Source: a phage. From it: DNA of 64,000 nucleotides. Position 1 is the first letter of the stretch; the number at the start of each line of letters is the position of its first letter. The translations under genes were made by a program, and so were the position numbers. Location of the stretch: the sequence record PZ452579.1; one strand, written 5' to 3'. The notes under the pieces were generated by a model. It searched no databases, was not told the origin of the DNA, and saw only the letters and a program-made list of their open reading frames with translations. Positions 641 through 50,704 of the stretch are shown piece after piece.

Positions 641-1954
641 TCAAATAAAATGGACGTCAAAACGACCACGAGTCGTGCCGACATACAATAACTGTTTAGC
701 TAATTCTGAATCAGCATAATGGATACACGGTGTATAAACAAAGGCCGTGTCAACAGACATACCCTGGGCCTTATGGAAGGTTGATACCGGTAGTGCCTTC
801 ACCTTAGTGAACATACGTTTAGCATCCCAGAATTCGCTCCATGGGGCTTTACCACCTTTATTCCAGAATTTGTATGTTTCTGCGGTCTTAGCCAAAAACA
901 AATTGAATTTATAAAGCTCTTCTTCAGAAGAAATAACCTTTATATCTTCGCGGATGTATTCTTCATCATCGCCATATGTTTCTACTGTAAGATTCCAGTA
1001 TCGTATCATATACTCGCCTGAAACACCACGTGCTTTAACGAATGTAGACGTTTCTACAGCATCTCGAATACGAACGAATTGCCCGTTATTGAAAAGCATT
1101 TCGGTCATATTTTTACCATCTAGCTTATATGTCTTAGTAAATGGCTCTTGTAGAACAATGACTTCGTCTTTAATAAATGGTTTTTCTGTTTCAAAAAGTT
1201 TTCGTCGAATAATTGAATTTAACTTGTCCACCGACTTATTTGTGAATGCCATCATTCGATTTTCGAAAAGGTCTTCAGGAGTTTTAACGACGTTAAAATA
1301 GTTCATCATATACGATTTAAGGTCTGTATATCCATGAACACCGTGCCCATCAACTACTTTATCGTAAATCCATTTGCCATTACGAATATCAGTCGCAACA
1401 TCAATAATTGGTGCATTGCTACGTTTAACTTCTGTAAGGTCGCATTGCACGAAGTCTTTGTGAGTGAAGAAAGGACTTAGATACGCAGTTGATTCGCCTG
1501 GGTCTACCGGTCGAATCTGGCATCGGTCACCAATTCCAATTACTGTGCACCATTTAGGGATACTAGCTAACATTATTTTAAACAGAGAACGGTCGCACAT
1601 TGACGCTTCATCAAATAACAGTACACGACACAAGGCTAAGTCGGGAACCTTTTTCTGTTCAAACAATACGTTTTCTTCGTATGTAGTTGGGTTGATTTTA
1701 AGAATGCTATGAATAGTCGATGCTTCTTGACCCGCAAGTTTGCTTAGAACCTTTTTAGCAGCATGTGTAGGGGCTGCTAAAATAATACCTGATTCTCCAG
1801 AAGAAATAAGGGCTTCAACGATGAATCTAGTAAGGGTTGTTTTACCTGTACCAGCGGGACCATTAATAGTTACGTGATGTTTCTTTTCTTTAATAGCGTT
1901 CATAACAACGTTGAAGGCGTTTTTCTGGCCTTCAGTCAAATCATCAAATGTCAT
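641..1954 (-). CDS. dda: Dda DNA helicase (SF1)
   Basis: 437 aa; MTFDDLTEGQKNAFN... and Walker A GPAGTGKTT; near-identical N-terminus to T4 Dda. Confidence 0.93.
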   Translation of the reverse strand: MTFDDLTEGQKNAFNVVMNAIKEKKHHVTINGPAGTGKTTLTRFIVEALISSGESGIILAAPTHAAKKVLSKLAGQEASTIHSILKINPTTYEENVLFEQKKVPDLALCRVLLFDEASMCDRSLFKIMLASIPKWCTVIGIGDRCQIRPVDPGESTAYLSPFFTHKDFVQCDLTEVKRSNAPIIDVATDIRNGKWIYDKVVDGHGVHGYTDLKSYMMNYFNVVKTPEDLFENRMMAFTNKSVDKLNSIIRRKLFETEKPFIKDEVIVLQEPFTKTYKLDGKNMTEMLFNNGQFVRIRDAVETSTFVKARGVSGEYMIRYWNLTVETYGDDEEYIREDIKVISSEEELYKFNLFLAKTAETYKFWNKGGKAPWSEFWDAKRMFTKVKALPVSTFHKAQGMSVDTAFVYTPCIHYADSELAKQLLYVGTTRGRFDVHFI

Positions 1955-2262
1955 CGTAAAGTCCCTGCAATTGGAATACTAACAATACGGCCTGTGTCCA
2001 GAATTCGTTGATACAATCTTTGCGTCTCCGCATCTAGTTTAACGTGTTTCATTTCAAGCTTATTAAACCAGAACTTACGCGGAGTTTCGACCATTCTTAG
2101 AACTCCCATTTTTAAATCTGTTTTATACTGTGTTTTCAAAGTATCGAAAACTTTATCTGCAATATCCTTTCTAAAAAATACTGCAGGACGATGCTCATCA
2201 AGTGGAACCGGGACAGTAAATCCTTCCATATCTCGATAAACTATTGCATATACATAAACCAT
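1951..2262 (-). CDS. Hypothetical protein (dda.1 position)
   Basis: 103-aa ORF in T4 dda.1 syntenic slot; 4-nt stop/start overlap with dda. Confidence 0.5.
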   Translation of the reverse strand: MVYVYAIVYRDMEGFTVPVPLDEHRPAVFFRKDIADKVFDTLKTQYKTDLKMGVLRMVETPRKFWFNKLEMKHVKLDAETQRLYQRILDTGRIVSIPIAGTLR

Positions 2263-2264
2263 AA

Positions 2265-3011
2265 TTAACCTTTAATCAGTTGGAATAATGATGCGCTAAG
2301 TGGTAAGCCACGTTTCAATTTTAATTTACCAATGAAACCAATCTTTTCAAAACGTTGCAGACCTTGGATAACTTTATCATATGTATCGAAAAGCGATTCA
2401 GCGTCAGTTAATTTAGTTTTAGTTTTCCAGTCAGAGCCTTTAAGAAGAACGTTGAGTTTAGTAAGTTCATGGCCTTCTGCTTGATGTGAGCCATTAATGC
2501 GTGCTTTCAAAGCAACAATTCTAAGTTTAGATTCGTTAGATAAAGGTTGATTTTTCATCATGTTCGCCATATGCTTAACACGATTTTCACGTTTTGCTCG
2601 GATTTTTAAAATAGTGTCATAAACCTTTTTAATTTGGGCCCATTTCTTCTCGTCGAGATTAAGTTTCTCTACTTTACGGGCAGAAGGATTAGCGATACGT
2701 CTTGCAATGGCATCACGTTTCCTAATAAGTTCTTCTAATGTTAAATCAGAACGAGCCGTGTTATATTTTTTCTTAACTGGGATAACATTACCTTTAATGT
2801 AGCCTATATCATTATTAAAACGTTCTAAGGATAATTTCTCACCTTCAACAGAGTTATTAAAAGATTCACCTGAGTAAGCGCAGACCTTTTGATCAAGAAT
2901 GTTTTTAAGGTAATTAAAGTCTAAGTTAAAATCCTTAGAGCGTCTCTTCGCAGAAGCTCTGGTGTGGTCAAGACGACGATTGATTTTGTTAATTTTATTA
3001 TTTGATAACAT
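2265..3011 (-). CDS. Srd-like protein (assigned by synteny and size)
   Basis: 248 aa, basic, between dda.1 and modA as T4 srd (about 250 aa); no motif check possible. Confidence 0.45.
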   Translation of the reverse strand: MLSNNKINKINRRLDHTRASAKRRSKDFNLDFNYLKNILDQKVCAYSGESFNNSVEGEKLSLERFNNDIGYIKGNVIPVKKKYNTARSDLTLEELIRKRDAIARRIANPSARKVEKLNLDEKKWAQIKKVYDTILKIRAKRENRVKHMANMMKNQPLSNESKLRIVALKARINGSHQAEGHELTKLNVLLKGSDWKTKTKLTDAESLFDTYDKVIQGLQRFEKIGFIGKLKLKRGLPLSASLFQLIKG

Positions 3012-3164
3012 AATATTTTCCTCTGTCTTATGGACGTTAGGTCATTTAGCTGATAAGCTTTATAATATCATGCCCTCAGGTAGTGTACACTCTTTTTTCG
3101 TAAAATGCTTTAATTTTTTATGTGTTATAATGGTTCTGAGTTCCATCCGGTTATTCCAATTCAG

Positions 3165-6264: not shown

Positions 6265-6272
6265 TATTTATA
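6265..6272 (-). promoter_or_regulatory. T4-type late promoter TATAAATA upstream of soc
   Basis: Plus-strand tatttata = minus TATAAATA, about 32 nt upstream of soc ATG. Confidence 0.6.
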
Positions 6273-13062: not shown

Positions 13063-13404
13063 TTAAAAGAATTTAAATTTTTTCTTGGTTCGTTCATTAA
13101 AAGCTTGTTGTACTTGCATTGTAACACATTTTTCAACATGTGGTGCAAGTTCTGCTTTTCTGTCCTGGTCAAGAACTGCAAAGTCCATTACGATTTTACC
13201 ATCAACCCAGTCTAGTTTTGTAATATAGACTATATGATGGGAACCGTCTTCAAGTGTAATCAGAATCTCTTGAATGACATTTTCCATTGCTGAACGGATA
13301 ATTTTAAGAGATTCATTAAACACTCGTTCTTTGCGAATGTCTTCCCCTTCCGAAGAAGGGGATTCATCAACGATTTCTAGATTTAAATCATCGAGATTAT
13401 TCAT
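13063..13404 (-). CDS. 40: gp40 head vertex assembly protein (by synteny)
   Basis: ORF between 41 and uvsX; track start is TTG at 13425, first ATG at 13404. Confidence 0.6.
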   Translation of the reverse strand: MNNLDDLNLEIVDESPSSEGEDIRKERVFNESLKIIRSAMENVIQEILITLEDGSHHIVYITKLDWVDGKIVMDFAVLDQDRKAELAPHVEKCVTMQVQQAFNERTKKKFKFF

Positions 13405-14569
13405 CGAAATCTTCCATTTCGTCAAGGTCGTTTTCTATATCTGCTGCAGACGGAGCATCAGAAGTTTTAACCGGAACTTTAGTTGTTGCTTTGCAATTAA
13501 TAAGGTCGTTAACAGCGTCATCAACTTCTTTAATAGAAGAGATAGCACCTAGTTTATATTTAGTTTCAATTGCATCTCGGAAAGGTTTGTGTTTAAACAA
13601 AGGTCCCCAGAATTCTACACAATCAGTAGCTTTAGCACGCCATGATTTTTCTTCACGAATCATTTCACCTGTTTCTTCGTCAAGGAATTCGCGAGCATAC
13701 CAACCGGCTTTAGGCTTAACTACAAAACCAATTTCAGTTGCCATTTCTAACAAGCCACTGAATGGGTCAATACCGCCATCAAAATTAACCGTGATCGGGA
13801 AAGTAGATTTCTCTTTAACTGTGCGAGATTTTTCTGCTTTCAACGTGAAGTCATAACCGGTCAATTCTGTACCTTCTTTAACCTGACGTTTAGAGATAAA
13901 AAATACCGTGTTGGCAGAATAAAGAATACCTGTACCACCGCCCATAATCTCTTTAGGATACAATCCGCCGATTTCCATTGCTGTATGGTTAATTGCAACA
14001 CACGGAATATCTTTAATAGTCAAATACGGGGTCACAATACGGAAAAGAGATTTAAGTGCCTTAGCACGAGACATATCACCTACGACTTTCTCGTTCAATG
14101 CATCTTCGGTTTCTTTCTTAGATGCAGTATTACCAATCGAGTCAATAAAGATAATAACTTTATCACCGCGTTCAATAGCGTCAAGCTGATTAGTCATATC
14201 AACTTTAAGTTGTTCGACAGATTGAATCGGAGTATGAACTACACGGTCTAAATCAACACCCATTGAACGAAAATAAGATTCTGAAGCACCGAATTCTGAG
14301 TCATAAAACAAACAGATTGCATCTTTATATTTCTTCATATACGCTGCAACCATAGTTAGTCCAAACAACGTTTTAAAGTGTTTAGAAGGAGCAGCAAAAA
14401 TAGTTAAGCCTGATTGCAACCCTGCATTCAGAGCACCACCTAGTGCAATATTCAACATCGGAATACGAGTAGGGACTTCATCACGATTATTAAACAGCTT
14501 AGACTTAGTCAAGTCTGCAGTCATTTTAGAAGTAGAAGCTTTAATCAGACGAGATTTTAAATCAGACAT
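13397..14569 (-). CDS. uvsX: UvsX recombinase (RecA-like)
   Basis: 390 aa; MSDLKSRLIKASTSKMTA... and RecA fold motifs; matches T4 UvsX. Confidence 0.95.
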   Translation of the reverse strand: MSDLKSRLIKASTSKMTADLTKSKLFNNRDEVPTRIPMLNIALGGALNAGLQSGLTIFAAPSKHFKTLFGLTMVAAYMKKYKDAICLFYDSEFGASESYFRSMGVDLDRVVHTPIQSVEQLKVDMTNQLDAIERGDKVIIFIDSIGNTASKKETEDALNEKVVGDMSRAKALKSLFRIVTPYLTIKDIPCVAINHTAMEIGGLYPKEIMGGGTGILYSANTVFFISKRQVKEGTELTGYDFTLKAEKSRTVKEKSTFPITVNFDGGIDPFSGLLEMATEIGFVVKPKAGWYAREFLDEETGEMIREEKSWRAKATDCVEFWGPLFKHKPFRDAIETKYKLGAISSIKEVDDAVNDLINCKATTKVPVKTSDAPSAADIENDLDEMEDFDE

Positions 14570-39114: not shown

Positions 39115-39122
39115 TATTTATA
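39115..39122 (-). promoter_or_regulatory. Late promoter TATAAATA upstream of gene 49, followed by a 5' UTR hairpin
   Basis: Plus tatttata; hairpin CCCTTA...TAAGGG at 39092..39116 lies between promoter and the gene 49 start. Confidence 0.55.
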
Positions 39123-48178: not shown

Positions 48179-48402
48179 TTAAAGTTTCAACAAAATTCAC
48201 CAAATCATTCTGACGAGCATCAATCTGATTTCTATAAAAATTAAATAAGATCCATCAATTTATTAGCTTGTTCACAGGTCATTTTACCATACTCGCTTCA
48301 ATAAGATTCATTACACCATTTACCATGTTATACGTAAACATCGGATAATTGTATTGTACTACAACATAAGCAATAAGCAAAAGTTTCATTTTGTTCTCCG
48401 TT

Positions 48403-48445
48403 TGTTTTGGTAGGACTACTATAACATAGTCCTACCAAGATGTAA
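48403..48445 (-). promoter_or_regulatory. Early-promoter/inverted-repeat cassette
   Basis: Minus strand GTTTAC, inverted repeat TTGGTAGGACTA / TAGTCCTACCAA bracketing GTTATAG. Confidence 0.55.
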
Positions 48446-48910
48446 ACTACCGATTGTGTTTTAAATGTTGATAAAGTTCTTCAACTTGTTTAGGGTCCAA
48501 AACAATTAAGTCATTTTCTTGGCGAAGATAAATCCATCCCTTATCCCCAGGGCCATTTTTACAAAACATCACTGCCGCCATATCATCATCTTCAGCGCTT
48601 TCAGGTAAAAGTTCAAGTACACCGTCTTCAGATTTTCCAGTATAATCGTAAAGCATAATATCCTCACATAATCTCGTTAACATACATTTGCAATTCAGTG
48701 TGCGTATCAGCCATCTTTTTCATTGCCTTATTGATATCGATATCACCGTCTTCACACCCGTGGGCATTTTCCCAATCGGATACAGCGTTAGCGTACTCTT
48801 CAATCAAAAACATTAACTTAGAAATTTTTTCTTTACGTGACATAACGTTCTCCTCTAGTAAGTAAGGTCTACTATAACACAACCTGAGGAGAAGTAAACT
48901 GCTAAATGCA

Positions 48911-48940
48911 AAAAAGCCCCAACCTTTCGGAAGGGGCTTT
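48911..48940 (-). terminator. Intrinsic terminator (GAAA-loop hairpin plus U-run), repeat copy A
   Basis: AAAAAAGCCCCAACCTTTCGGAAGGGGC; 28 bp identical to copy at 49533..49562. Confidence 0.65.
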
Positions 48941-48942
48941 GA

Positions 48943-49500
48943 TTAGTTTTTGTAATATCGTAAAGGGTTGATATGGAATGAAAGCATTGCGCGTGGAATA
49001 GGACGACTCAAAAGACTCTTAAGTTTCCAACCACAGTAAACACGCAGATAAAATGTAATACCACCAACCTTAAGATAAGGTATAGCAGCGAATAATCCCC
49101 ATGCAGACTCGTTCCAAACTAAAAGATATCCATGATGTGCCGGATCAGGAGATCCAGATTTAGTTTCGGCGTTGCCTTTATAGTGCCATTCTGATGAAGC
49201 TTCGCGACCTAAAACATGATACGAAAAATTATATGCTTTGTTGCGCCATAGCCAAGCTACGCGTTGAGCATATTTACCTATAACAGGAATTTTACGTATT
49301 TTAGACCAACGTTCAACATGGCCGTGGTCACCATCGATAGGATTATCGTAAGTCATCATCCAGTCAAAGCCATAAGGTAGTTTACCGGTTTTTTCACTAT
49401 GGAATGGAACTACAAATGGTGCTAGAATAATTGCTAAAATCGCTGCGATCCAATCTATAGGAACAAGAACAACCCAACTTATGTATTTTAAAAATTTCAT
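48943..49500 (-). CDS. Membrane protein
   Basis: 185-aa ORF with N-terminal TM segments; flanked by identical terminator repeats. Confidence 0.55.
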   Translation of the reverse strand: MKFLKYISWVVLVPIDWIAAILAIILAPFVVPFHSEKTGKLPYGFDWMMTYDNPIDGDHGHVERWSKIRKIPVIGKYAQRVAWLWRNKAYNFSYHVLGREASSEWHYKGNAETKSGSPDPAHHGYLLVWNESAWGLFAAIPYLKVGGITFYLRVYCGWKLKSLLSRPIPRAMLSFHINPLRYYKN

Positions 49501-49525
49501 ATATCCTCTCTTAGTTTACAAGGAT

Positions 49526-49533
49526 ATTTATAC
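49526..49533 (-). promoter_or_regulatory. Late promoter TATAAATA
   Basis: Plus tatttata about 26 nt upstream of ATG at 49500, immediately after terminator copy B. Confidence 0.55.
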
Positions 49534-49562
49534 AAAAAGCCCCAACCTTTCGGAAGGGGCAG
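49533..49562 (-). terminator. Intrinsic terminator (GAAA-loop hairpin plus U-run), repeat copy B
   Basis: CAAAAAGCCCCAACCTTTCGGAAGGGGC directly 3' of the ORF ending at 49568. Confidence 0.65.
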
Positions 49563-49567
49563 GTAAA

Positions 49568-49870
49568 TTAGATAGATGTAGGCTCTAATTTTATTTTCAT
49601 GAACTCGGCAAATTGTCTGGCAGTTTTTATGCCTTGTTCATGACATTCAAATGCATCATCACAGGGGCTATTTTTGTAATGCTTTGCCATATACTTATAA
49701 AATTTTTCAGAATTCTCAACATTTTGAATTTCGAACAAAGTATATACGTTTTTAATCCCTGATTCCATAAAGTTGTCAAAGTACGGGTCGACATATGCAG
49801 TGCCAACGATAGGAGTTGTTGCTGCAAAAAACCCCAGCATCGCCACAATGGCTATCGCTCTTAAGGCCAT
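49568..49870 (-). CDS. Secreted small protein
   Basis: 100 aa with signal-peptide-like N-terminus. Confidence 0.5.
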   Translation of the reverse strand: MALRAIAIVAMLGFFAATTPIVGTAYVDPYFDNFMESGIKNVYTLFEIQNVENSEKFYKYMAKHYKNSPCDDAFECHEQGIKTARQFAEFMKIKLEPTSI

Positions 49871-50119
49871 ATAGGCCTCCTGTTAATTTTGGCCAGTATT
49901 TATTTTTCGCCTTTGGACGGCCTTAACATCTGCGAGGTATTTTTCCAGCTTACGCTTACGAGTATAATCTGCTTTAGAACCAGTTTGACGGATATCCTCA
50001 TTTAAATGAGAAATAGAATGTCCTAATTCTCTTCGGATTTCATCCAATTGGGTTACAGTAAGATTACGAAGTTGTCTTTCGTTTAATTGCTGCATATATA
50101 CCTCTTGGTTAGATATTAG

Positions 50120-50127
50120 TATTTATA
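50120..50127 (-). promoter_or_regulatory. Late promoter TATAAATA
   Basis: Plus tatttata about 25 nt upstream of ATG at 50095. Confidence 0.5.
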
Positions 50128-50704
50128 ACAACCCTGTCAAATCATTCCAATGCTTCCGGCATAATGACACATATTTATCGGTATCACCAATTTCAATTTG
50201 TCCGCCATCTATAATTGGAAGTCCATCTTCCGTGACTCTAGCTACCATTGTGGCTTTTTTACCGCAATGACAGACACCTTTAAGTTCAACAAGCTTATCG
50301 GCGATAGCCATTAATGCTTGAGAACCTTCAAATAGATTACCTTTAAAATCTGTTCGTAGCCCATATGCCATTACCGGCACATTGTATACGTCAACAATGC
50401 GACTAAGTTGATACACCTTTTCAGTAGTTAAGAACTGAGCTTCGTCAACAAATACACAGTGAATATCCTTTTGTGCTGCGGCCCATTTATAGAATTCAAA
50501 GATATCCATGTCTTTTGTAATTATATTGGCATCCTGACGAATACCAATACGAGAGACTATTTCACCTTTTGAATCACGAGTATCAATAGCCGGTTTAAGA
50601 ACTAATACACCCATGCCACGTTCTTTATAGTTATGTGCGGCGGTAAGTAATGAAGCAGACTTACCAGCGTTCATAGCGGCATAGGTAAAAATTAAACTAG
50701 CCAT
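50123..50704 (-). CDS. tk: Thymidine kinase
   Basis: 193 aa; MASLIFTYAAMNAGKSASLL P-loop and C-terminal zinc motif CHCGKKA; T4 Tk is 193 aa. Confidence 0.92.
   Translation of the reverse strand: MASLIFTYAAMNAGKSASLLTAAHNYKERGMGVLVLKPAIDTRDSKGEIVSRIGIRQDANIITKDMDIFEFYKWAAAQKDIHCVFVDEAQFLTTEKVYQLSRIVDVYNVPVMAYGLRTDFKGNLFEGSQALMAIADKLVELKGVCHCGKKATMVARVTEDGLPIIDGGQIEIGDTDKYVSLCRKHWNDLTGLL

Follow-up and report, generated by a model that had tools for sequence, protein, structure and literature searches.

The closest described counterparts of the locus reported here are the PeSL and their middle-promoter relatives, the PmSL, in which stem-loops joined to promoter elements flank small genes in the hyperplastic regions of T4-type phages and which explain indels between close relatives (PMC2839356, PMC4122927). 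For PeSL cassettes mini-circles have been demonstrated, at about 1e-5 per virion, and general recombination in T4 needs less than 50 bp of homology (PMC2839356). In the internal-protein (IP) loci of T-even phages late accessory genes are swapped at fixed loci (Repoila et al. 1994, as summarised in PMC2839356 and PMC4122927), and the elements associated with these loci consist of T4 early promoters and weak A+T-rich stem-loops without poly-G/poly-C stems (PMC2839356). An analogy with the attC sites of integrons was drawn for the PeSL by Arbiol et al., who cite Mazel 2006 (PMC2839356).

The window, that is, the whole stretch of 64,000 nucleotides of phage DNA that was analysed (PZ452579.1), comes from a T4-type phage that is RB69-like and falls in the genus Mosigvirus, and its positions 48400-50100 are 96-98% identical to, for example, PHB12, FL18 and AV109. 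An earlier note on this DNA had proposed that a gene between two flanking repeats was gained or lost as a cassette by recombination between them. The base-exact junctions of filled and empty loci in related phages support this proposal; the recombination event, the enzymes behind it and its direction, whether loss, gain or both, are inferred. Taken as a whole, it is quite probable that the gene forms a self-contained late cassette which sits at the hairpin terminating the rI operon and has been gained and lost by way of the hairpin copies.

Anatomy of the locus

All genes of the region lie on the minus strand and therefore the upstream copy of the repeat is the one with the higher coordinate. 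In the direction of transcription tk (50123-50704, from the ORF list) is followed by an rI.1 homologue of 70 amino acids (49883..50095; phrog_1826, E 7.5e-36, and the annotation of the RB69 orthologue) and then by rI, the antiholin that regulates lysis inhibition (100 amino acids, 49568..49870; Pfam PF24205 Antiholin, E 6e-24, phrog_1246 and annotations), which is the immediate upstream neighbour of the cassette. At the stop codon of tk and 24 nt 5' of the start of rI.1 there is a late-promoter motif, TATAAATA (50120..50127, identified from motif and context), whose activity is judged from the T4 late-promoter consensus and which presumably starts an rI.1-rI late transcript that would end at the upstream hairpin. 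The first gene past the cassette is a mobD.2a-like gene of 59 amino acids (DUF7438, 48664..48843; Pfam PF24219, E 1.7e-16, and the RB69 annotation). The gene content of the tk-rI-mobD region differs between T4 and RB69.

A repeat search found an exact direct repeat of 27 nt at 49534-49560 (copy U) and 48911-48937 (copy D), 623 bp apart, and a pattern search of the 64-kb window that allowed up to three mismatches found exactly these two sites, compared to none in 100 shuffled sequences. The pair of identical repeats that the earlier note had seen around the gene is thus present and not a product of chance, but the identity extends over 27 bp and not 28. The 28-mer quoted there has its sole exact match at 49533-49560, and at 48910-48937 there is one mismatch, the first base being A and not C (an A-run of 6 versus 5); the coordinates given with it, 48913..48940 and 49535..49562, fall on the right sites but are 2-3 nt too high.

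Read on the minus strand, either copy is GCCCCUUCCGAAAGGUUGGGGC followed by five or six U, and in its fold a UU/UU internal loop separates a five-pair G-C stem (GCCCC/GGGGC) from a CC/GG stem that carries a GAAA tetraloop. The stem-loop and the U-run occupy 49539-49560 and 49534-49538 in copy U, and 48916-48937 and 48910-48915 in copy D. Both copies are G+C-rich hairpins with a U-run (-19.9 and -15.1 kcal/mol, z = -3.9 and -2.4), and they begin 7 nt after the stop codon of rI and 5 nt after that of the cassette gene, respectively. Each has the appearance of an intrinsic (Rho-independent) terminator, with its G+C-rich hairpin and U-run at the 3' end of a gene, and sites equivalent to these hairpins have been marked as terminators by other annotators. 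Judging from consensus and conservation the hairpins probably terminate transcription, copy U that of rI.1-rI, at the left boundary of the cassette, and copy D that of the cassette gene, at its right boundary. A simple terminator scan of the window did not flag the hairpin because its stem contains the UU/UU internal loop, and the folds given above were used in its place. Directly past hairpin D there is a candidate early promoter, TTTACT-N16-TATAGT with an extended-10 TG (48871..48898), picked up by a consensus scan.

It had also been claimed that a late promoter is joined to the upstream copy, and an exact TATAAATA indeed lies one base (G) past the five-T run of copy U (49525..49532) and 24 nt 5' of the ATG of the cassette gene, while the consensus scan reported no early-promoter hexamer pair between copy U and that ATG. 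The 24-nt 5' leader between motif and gene (49501..49524) contains, as we read the sequence, a ribosome-binding site GAGAGGA at 49504-49510, and its motif GTAAACTAA is common to the window and the Dhakavirus loci described below. A T4 late promoter has such an element some 6-7 nt 5' of the transcript start and no -35 element. TATAAATA is not enriched in the window (5 found versus about 7 expected), and four of the five sites are on the coding strand just 5' of a ribosome-binding site and an ATG. The motif is kept with the cassette gene at three loci of other genera, and the annotation of Yersinia phage fPS-65 names it a 'predicted late promoter'. Consensus and conservation together suggest that TATAAATA drives late transcription here.

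The gene between the repeats, which the earlier note had described as encoding a membrane protein of 185 amino acids, was confirmed as an ORF at 48943-49500 on the minus strand. Its product is a full-length member of Pfam DUF7338 (PF24027; a score of 208.2 bits where the cut-off is 27, with residues 1-184 of 185 matched) and matches phrog_2143 (E 5.6e-79), a family that PHROGs lists as 'unknown function'. That it is a membrane protein is a prediction from hydropathy and predicted structure: there is one strongly hydrophobic N-terminal segment at residues 7-33 approximately (Kyte-Doolittle 19-residue mean of 2.46), and in the confident AlphaFold model (pLDDT 93.7) the chain begins with a long helix, followed by short helices and, at the C-terminal end, a beta-sheet. 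The C-terminal domain is thus alpha+beta, and no solved structural neighbour was found for the predicted fold. The conserved motifs of the family are TYDNPIDGDxGHxERW, VAWLWRNKAYNF and RxYxGWKLK. Our best guess is that DUF7338 is a dispensable accessory protein that acts on the envelope and is made late in infection. Some records of Felixounavirus homologues carry the label 'holin', which we rejected: the Pfam match is to DUF7338 only, PHROGs gives no function, the Felixounavirus copy is located inside a tRNA array and not in a lysis cassette, and adjacency to rI is confined to Mosigvirus.

In the explanation that we favor, the 623-bp unit would consist of the late promoter, the ribosome-binding site, the DUF7338 gene and the terminator hairpin. 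The insertion would have taken place at the hairpin that terminates the rI operon, and for this reason one 27-bp hairpin sequence bounds both sides of the unit. At the level of RNA, copy U would end the rI.1-rI late transcript and copy D the transcript of the cassette, and as each hairpin would end a transcript the neighbouring genes would be insulated from the insert. At the level of DNA, the two direct copies would be a short patch of homology.

Filled and empty loci in related phages

RB69 lacks exactly the 623-bp unit, the stop codon of rI being followed by one hairpin and then by the same early-promoter region. Among the phages in GenBank the filled form with the 623-bp unit was found in 23 Mosigvirus records, 12 of which are from the LF82 series and which include PHB12 and AV109, and the uninterrupted junction of rI, hairpin and next gene was found in 132 records. 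These GenBank records were used for the Mosigvirus loci instead of IMG/VR, where no cassette-bearing Mosigvirus was found and a query with rI gave three loci only. When 10 filled loci (window included) and 11 empty loci were read base by base, the hairpin copies were 623-624 bp apart in all 10 filled loci and there was exactly one copy in each of the 11 empty ones. The relatives without the gene thus keep a single copy of the repeat, as the earlier note had anticipated, both in RB69 and in every empty locus that was read. As the gene is absent from most sister phages and one hairpin is kept, the hairpin is most likely a short recombination site for the gain and loss of genes.

These junctions also bear on the simplest alternative, that two neighbouring genes happen to use the same common terminator and that this has nothing to do with gene content. 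G+C-rich tetraloop hairpins are frequent between the cistrons of T4-type phages, and other hairpins, of the C(UUCG)G kind, were seen as well. Coincidence is nevertheless hardly credible considering that there are two copies in 64 kb where none is expected and that in 132 genomes the deletion ends exactly in the repeat, and the empty-site junctions refute it. T4 also speaks against it: in the 57.0-74.5 kb stretch of T4 there is no such hairpin after rI, the sole copy being located at the tRNA end, and rI overlaps rI.-1, past which an early promoter and a hairpin of another kind, C(UUCG)G, are located. All matches in a blastn survey that covered the end of rI together with the hairpin were from RB69-like phages and therefore the hairpin after rI is specific to Mosigvirus.

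The sequences next to the hairpin are polymorphic. On the plus strand the right flank (towards rI, positions +1 to +3) is agg or tag, and the left flank, 6-12 nt from the hairpin, is ctgctaaatgc, ctgatagatgc or ctgatagatac, and every combination of these flank haplotypes was seen in filled as well as in empty loci. In neighbour-joining trees built from 560 bp of one flank and 1150 bp of the other the filled and empty genomes were fully intermixed, and the diversity of the flanking genes was the same within the filled genomes, within the empty genomes and overall. The state of the cassette is unlinked to its flanks. Because the polymorphisms adjacent to the hairpin combine freely with and without the cassette, the 27-bp copies or their very edges would have to be where the crossovers took place. 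KMB38 has, in place of the usual 9 nt next to copy U on its outer side, the sequence that is found beyond copy D, a conversion tract running from one hairpin copy into the other. In AV109 and ECO111 there is a substitution in just one of the two hairpin copies, and some empty sites have a different hairpin loop, CCATAAGG on the plus strand.

The same data have to be weighed against the possibility that the hairpins are passive, in which case there would have been one ancient insertion or deletion and the scatter of filled and empty genomes would come from ordinary recombination of flanking genes in mixed infections. The flanking genes are mosaic and equally diverse in filled and empty genomes, the diversity of the cassette is like that of its conserved neighbours, and recombination in T4-type phages is very frequent (PMC2839356). 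We nonetheless regard this as rather unlikely, since the free combination of the polymorphisms next to the hairpin places the crossovers within or at the 27-bp copies, the tract in KMB38 shows conversion between copies, and other genera have a second locus at which this hairpin is again the boundary of cassettes, which differ and whose order is permuted. Even if there was a single founding event, it began and ended exactly in the hairpin. An ancient insertion or deletion together with exchange of flanks could yield much of the interspersed pattern, and to that extent the pattern counts against gain and loss through the hairpin copies. In the assembled genomes, moreover, neither recombination intermediates nor deletion-junction reads nor mini-circles are visible.

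The age of the cassette was considered as a means of telling gain from loss and was given up. The cassette at first appeared less diverse (1.5%) than its flanks (4-5%), but gene by gene the values were 1.6% for DUF7338, 1.8% for rI.1, 2.3% for tk, 3.4% for rI and 7.6% for the mobD.2a-like gene. The diversity of the cassette is like that of rI.1 and tk and therefore neither a recent gain nor repeated loss is singled out.

The hairpin at the end of the tRNA operon

The earlier note had named the finding that would speak against its proposal, namely a common terminator present at many unrelated sites with no link to gene content. What we found instead was two copies in the window and, within the stretches that were read (about 17.5 kb of T4, at 57.0-74.5 kb, about 26 kb of RB69 and other related loci), only one other site, the end of the tRNA/small-RNA operon, which is itself a hot spot of cassette presence and absence. 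The same hairpin closes this operon in T4, RB69 and other genera of Tevenvirinae, and it follows rnaC in T4 (GCCCCGACCGAAAGGTTGGGGC) and in RB69, where it is identical to that of the window. In RB69 the hairpin stands alone past rnaC. In fPS-65 the order is hairpin, late promoter, a different gene and hairpin, and in L008/L009 it is hairpin, late promoter, DUF7338, hairpin, late promoter and next gene; in L007/L043 these last two genes are in reverse order and are closed by the hairpin and an early promoter. The proteins of neighbouring cassettes at this site begin with MKTY.EFL, a start that we take to resemble the targeting peptide of internal proteins.

DUF7338 was found in 554 phage records, and in phages other than Mosigvirus its identity does not exceed 77% and it has a different place in the genome: past the tRNA/small-RNA operon in Dhakavirus VR5, near tRNA genes in RB16 and inside the tRNA array in Felixounavirus. 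In VR5, VR20 and JS98-like loci, past the tRNA/small-RNA operon, the same hairpin, TATAAATA and a similar leader stand 5' of DUF7338, and the 22-nt hairpin of VR20 is identical to that of the window. The same 26-28 nt of the hairpin were also found in unrelated phages. There was no match in 5,426 E. coli genomes, and a host origin of the hairpin was rejected on this ground.

A likely history is that the hairpin was originally the terminator closing the tRNA/rnaD/rnaC operon of Tevenvirinae, where it brackets alternative late cassettes, and that the DUF7338 unit came to the rI site most likely from the array at the tRNA end and has since been lost, again most likely, by most Mosigvirus lineages. 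In its simplest form, the Mosigvirus lineage would have acquired a unit of hairpin, late promoter and DUF7338 in the region of the rI terminator, and later losses would have followed, perhaps with regains, by exchange between the two hairpin copies. If the copies recombine, or if the template is switched from one to the other, the cassette would be deleted precisely and one hairpin left, as in RB69 and most Mosigvirus; it could return by the reverse reaction or by ordinary exchange when a carrier infects the same cell. In RB69 the lone hairpin may be either the scar of a loss or a docking site, and the junctions fit both alike because the reaction would be reversible.

Loss could also come about by replication slippage or template switching, in which the hairpin would stall the polymerase and the nascent strand would pair again with the other direct copy. 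Slipped mispairing is favored by repeats that are short, close and able to form hairpins (Albertini 1982, cited in PMC4122927), and the present copies, of 27 bp each, are separated by 623 bp and fold into strong hairpins. Slippage covers deletion but not re-insertion, the move to another locus or the permuted order of cassettes, and there is no sequence feature that separates it from UvsX-dependent recombination; we consider it an improbable explanation of the whole, though not a negligible one.

Recurrence of the hairpin at cassette boundaries raises another alternative, that it is a dedicated site, similar to attC, for a structure-specific or sequence-specific phage protein that carries out site-specific excision and integration. 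Its 22 nt hardly vary between genera in which the DUF7338 proteins share no more than 75-77% identity, the same 26-28 nt are present in unrelated phages and absent from the E. coli genomes, and such a protein was a matter of speculation for PeSL stems in Arbiol et al. (PMC2839356). On the other side, neither the ORFs nor the Pfam and PHROGs matches of the locus include a recombinase or nuclease gene linked to the cassette, and the stem is fully paired in T4 versus the UU/UU internal loop in Mosigvirus and therefore no special structural feature is conserved. Strong conservation is expected also of the terminator of a stable-RNA operon, and the different loop CCATAAGG at some empty sites does not fit a dedicated site either. 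We think it very unlikely that the hairpin is such a site. Similarly improbable is the broader proposal that the end of the tRNA operon and the rI site make up an integron-like platform at which a T-even protein that recognises the hairpin captures and reorders late-gene cassettes and exports them between genera; if this were true, the platform would perhaps export cassettes also to the unrelated phages with the same hairpin.

The locus is an unusually clean natural case of the gain and loss of an accessory gene in large virulent phages: a single gene lies between two hairpin copies of 27 bp, and among over 150 sequenced relatives both states are seen, with base-exact junctions. It extends the stem-loop cassette idea of PeSL and PmSL to late genes and to the RB69 group and suggests that the hairpin alone may supply enough homology without a shared promoter. 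It also indicates that the hairpin stems from the terminator of the tRNA/small-RNA operon and that a second cassette array is located there. Mosigvirus are in use in phage engineering and therapy, and for these purposes nature offers here an insertion point that is insulated and evidently tolerated, while DUF7338 is flagged as a probable dispensable late membrane protein whose predicted fold is unmatched. A T4 specialist is unlikely to be surprised, but the case is clean and well replicated.

Comparison with known cassette systems

Lambdoid morons are promoter-gene-terminator units inserted between two genes, and the present cassette is like them in being an autonomous and apparently dispensable unit with its own promoter and terminator between conserved genes. 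Morons, however, are typically expressed from the prophage and lack bounding direct repeats, whereas here the phage is virulent, the promoter is of the T4 late type and identical hairpins bound the unit. With integrons the locus shares single-gene cassettes, repeats that form hairpins, arrays variable in order and content, and circular intermediates, which have been proposed. It differs in that there is no integrase, every cassette brings its own promoter and the repeat is an exact direct one, which fits general recombination. The likeness to the shuffling of IP genes is that late genes are exchanged between close relatives through conserved flanking regulatory sequences, but the stem here is GCCCC/GGGGC, unlike that of the IP-associated elements, and the promoter is late.

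The likeness to PeSL is the closest. In both an intergenic stem-loop terminator with G/C runs is coupled to a promoter and a ribosome-binding site, in a hyperplastic region, next to a small gene without known function in an insert that is transcriptionally insulated, and in both close relatives differ by the precise presence or absence of a gene with one element remaining. Hairpin D and the early-promoter-like site past it resemble a PeSL of the T4/PST type and fit its consensus, TTTACW-N17-TAYWAT, except for the 16-nt spacer (PMC4122927). Copy U is instead joined to the late TATAAATA and not to an early or middle promoter. The term 'late promoter' is absent from Arbiol et al. 2010 (PMC2839356), and it was not met in the consulted parts of Comeau et al. 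2014 (PMC4122927). In a PeSL an early (sigma-70-like) promoter comes right after the stem-loop and is followed by a Shine-Dalgarno sequence and an ATG, whereas the DUF7338 unit has the late motif after copy U and an early-like promoter only after copy D and is therefore not a strict PeSL. The mapped crossovers of PeSL fall in the part from the promoter to the Shine-Dalgarno sequence, but the two boundary elements here carry different promoters and therefore the homology that they share is the 27-bp hairpin with its U-run only. Other differences are the genus (Mosigvirus), the locus (rI) and the apparent recruitment of the hairpin from the terminator of the tRNA/small-RNA operon. The cassette works like a PeSL, but it is a late-promoter variant and not a member of that class.

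The hairpin in unrelated phages and its variants at the rI site

An identical hairpin of 26-28 nt, GCCCCTTCCGAAAGGTTGGGGCTTTT, serves as an intergenic terminator in phages of unrelated families, as it does in the T5-like Salmonella phage UTK0009 (L087, 1201-1226) and in Aeromonas phage BUCT695 (L088, 1201-1228). An exact match of this length would not be expected to arise by chance in 2.3 Gb, and no match to the hairpin sequence was found among 5,426 E. coli genomes. When the rI site was compared in KMB38 (L073, about 2636-2670), it was found that the 9 nt past the upstream hairpin copy, the putative terminator of rI.1-rI, had been swapped for the flank of the downstream copy, tttgattag, which makes the repeat longer and leaves the rI stop codon intact. 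The swapped bases form a tract of gene conversion between these hairpin copies. At some empty rI sites (CCU7, L082, and the loci L068 and L070), the hairpin loop is altered at several adjacent bases and reads CCATAAGG instead of CCTTTCGG on the plus strand, which looks like a replacement rather than a point mutation. In TH58 there are about 260 additional bp 3' of the cassette (L003, 1547-2045), which encode a second ORF of 96 aa whose C-terminus matches the DUF7189 ORF of the window and which adjoins a truncated 63-aa copy; this extra ORF is a further local difference in gene content.

Late-promoter motifs and the start of rI

The motif TATAAATA occurs only five times in the window, a count that is not above chance, and four of the five lie on the coding strand directly 5' of a ribosome-binding site and ATG. 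Minus-strand motifs are at 50120-50127, 39115-39122 and 6265-6272, and the first of these lies at the stop codon of tk and would be the promoter for rI.1-rI. The annotated start codon of rI varies, giving 273 nt in RB69 (L001, 2042-2314), 243 nt in phiC120 (L079, 2102-2344) and 303 nt in most other records, including the window (49568-49870); in the 303-nt reading the match to the Pfam antiholin model begins at residue 1.

The DUF7338 gene and its protein

In Felixounavirus, Karamvirus-like and RB16-like phages, tRNA gene clusters adjoin or enclose the DUF7338 gene (L006, 2501-3058; L012-L015; L005). Some records name the product a holin, a label behind which no evidence is visible. The structure predicted for the window gene (48943-49500) is confident, with a pLDDT of 93.7, and no neighbour was found among the solved structures compared with it. 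Its invariant residues, D52, G57, H61, R64, W65 and W83-N87, point to a defined, putative binding or catalytic site.

A second cassette array at the end of the tRNA operon

The same hairpin bounds a second cassette array, at the end of the tRNA/rnaD/rnaC operon. This array is empty in RB69 (hairpin at L085, 14087-14108), and one or two late genes occupy it in other phages, as in Yersinia phage fPS-65 (L067, 1999-2030 and 2558-2588) and at the loci L008/L009 and L007/L043 (around 1918-3082); where there are two cassettes, their order is permuted between JS98-like and vB_EcoM_005-like loci. In T4, tttttggtatctaagcctttcc comes directly after the tRNA-end hairpin (hairpin at L086, 13836-13857; junction about 13800-13836), whereas in RB69 it comes after another hairpin, downstream of ORF148c (L085, about 13380-13420). 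Therefore, T4 seems to have lost ORF149c/148c by deletion between two ends made of hairpin and T-run. Several proteins of this array begin with MKTYAEFL, MKTYNEFL or MKSYTQFL (L067, 2076-2414 and 2677-3240; ORF149c in L085; L008 after 3082). These N-termini resemble the capsid-targeting peptide of the T4 internal proteins, and the tRNA-end array may therefore be an internal-protein locus.
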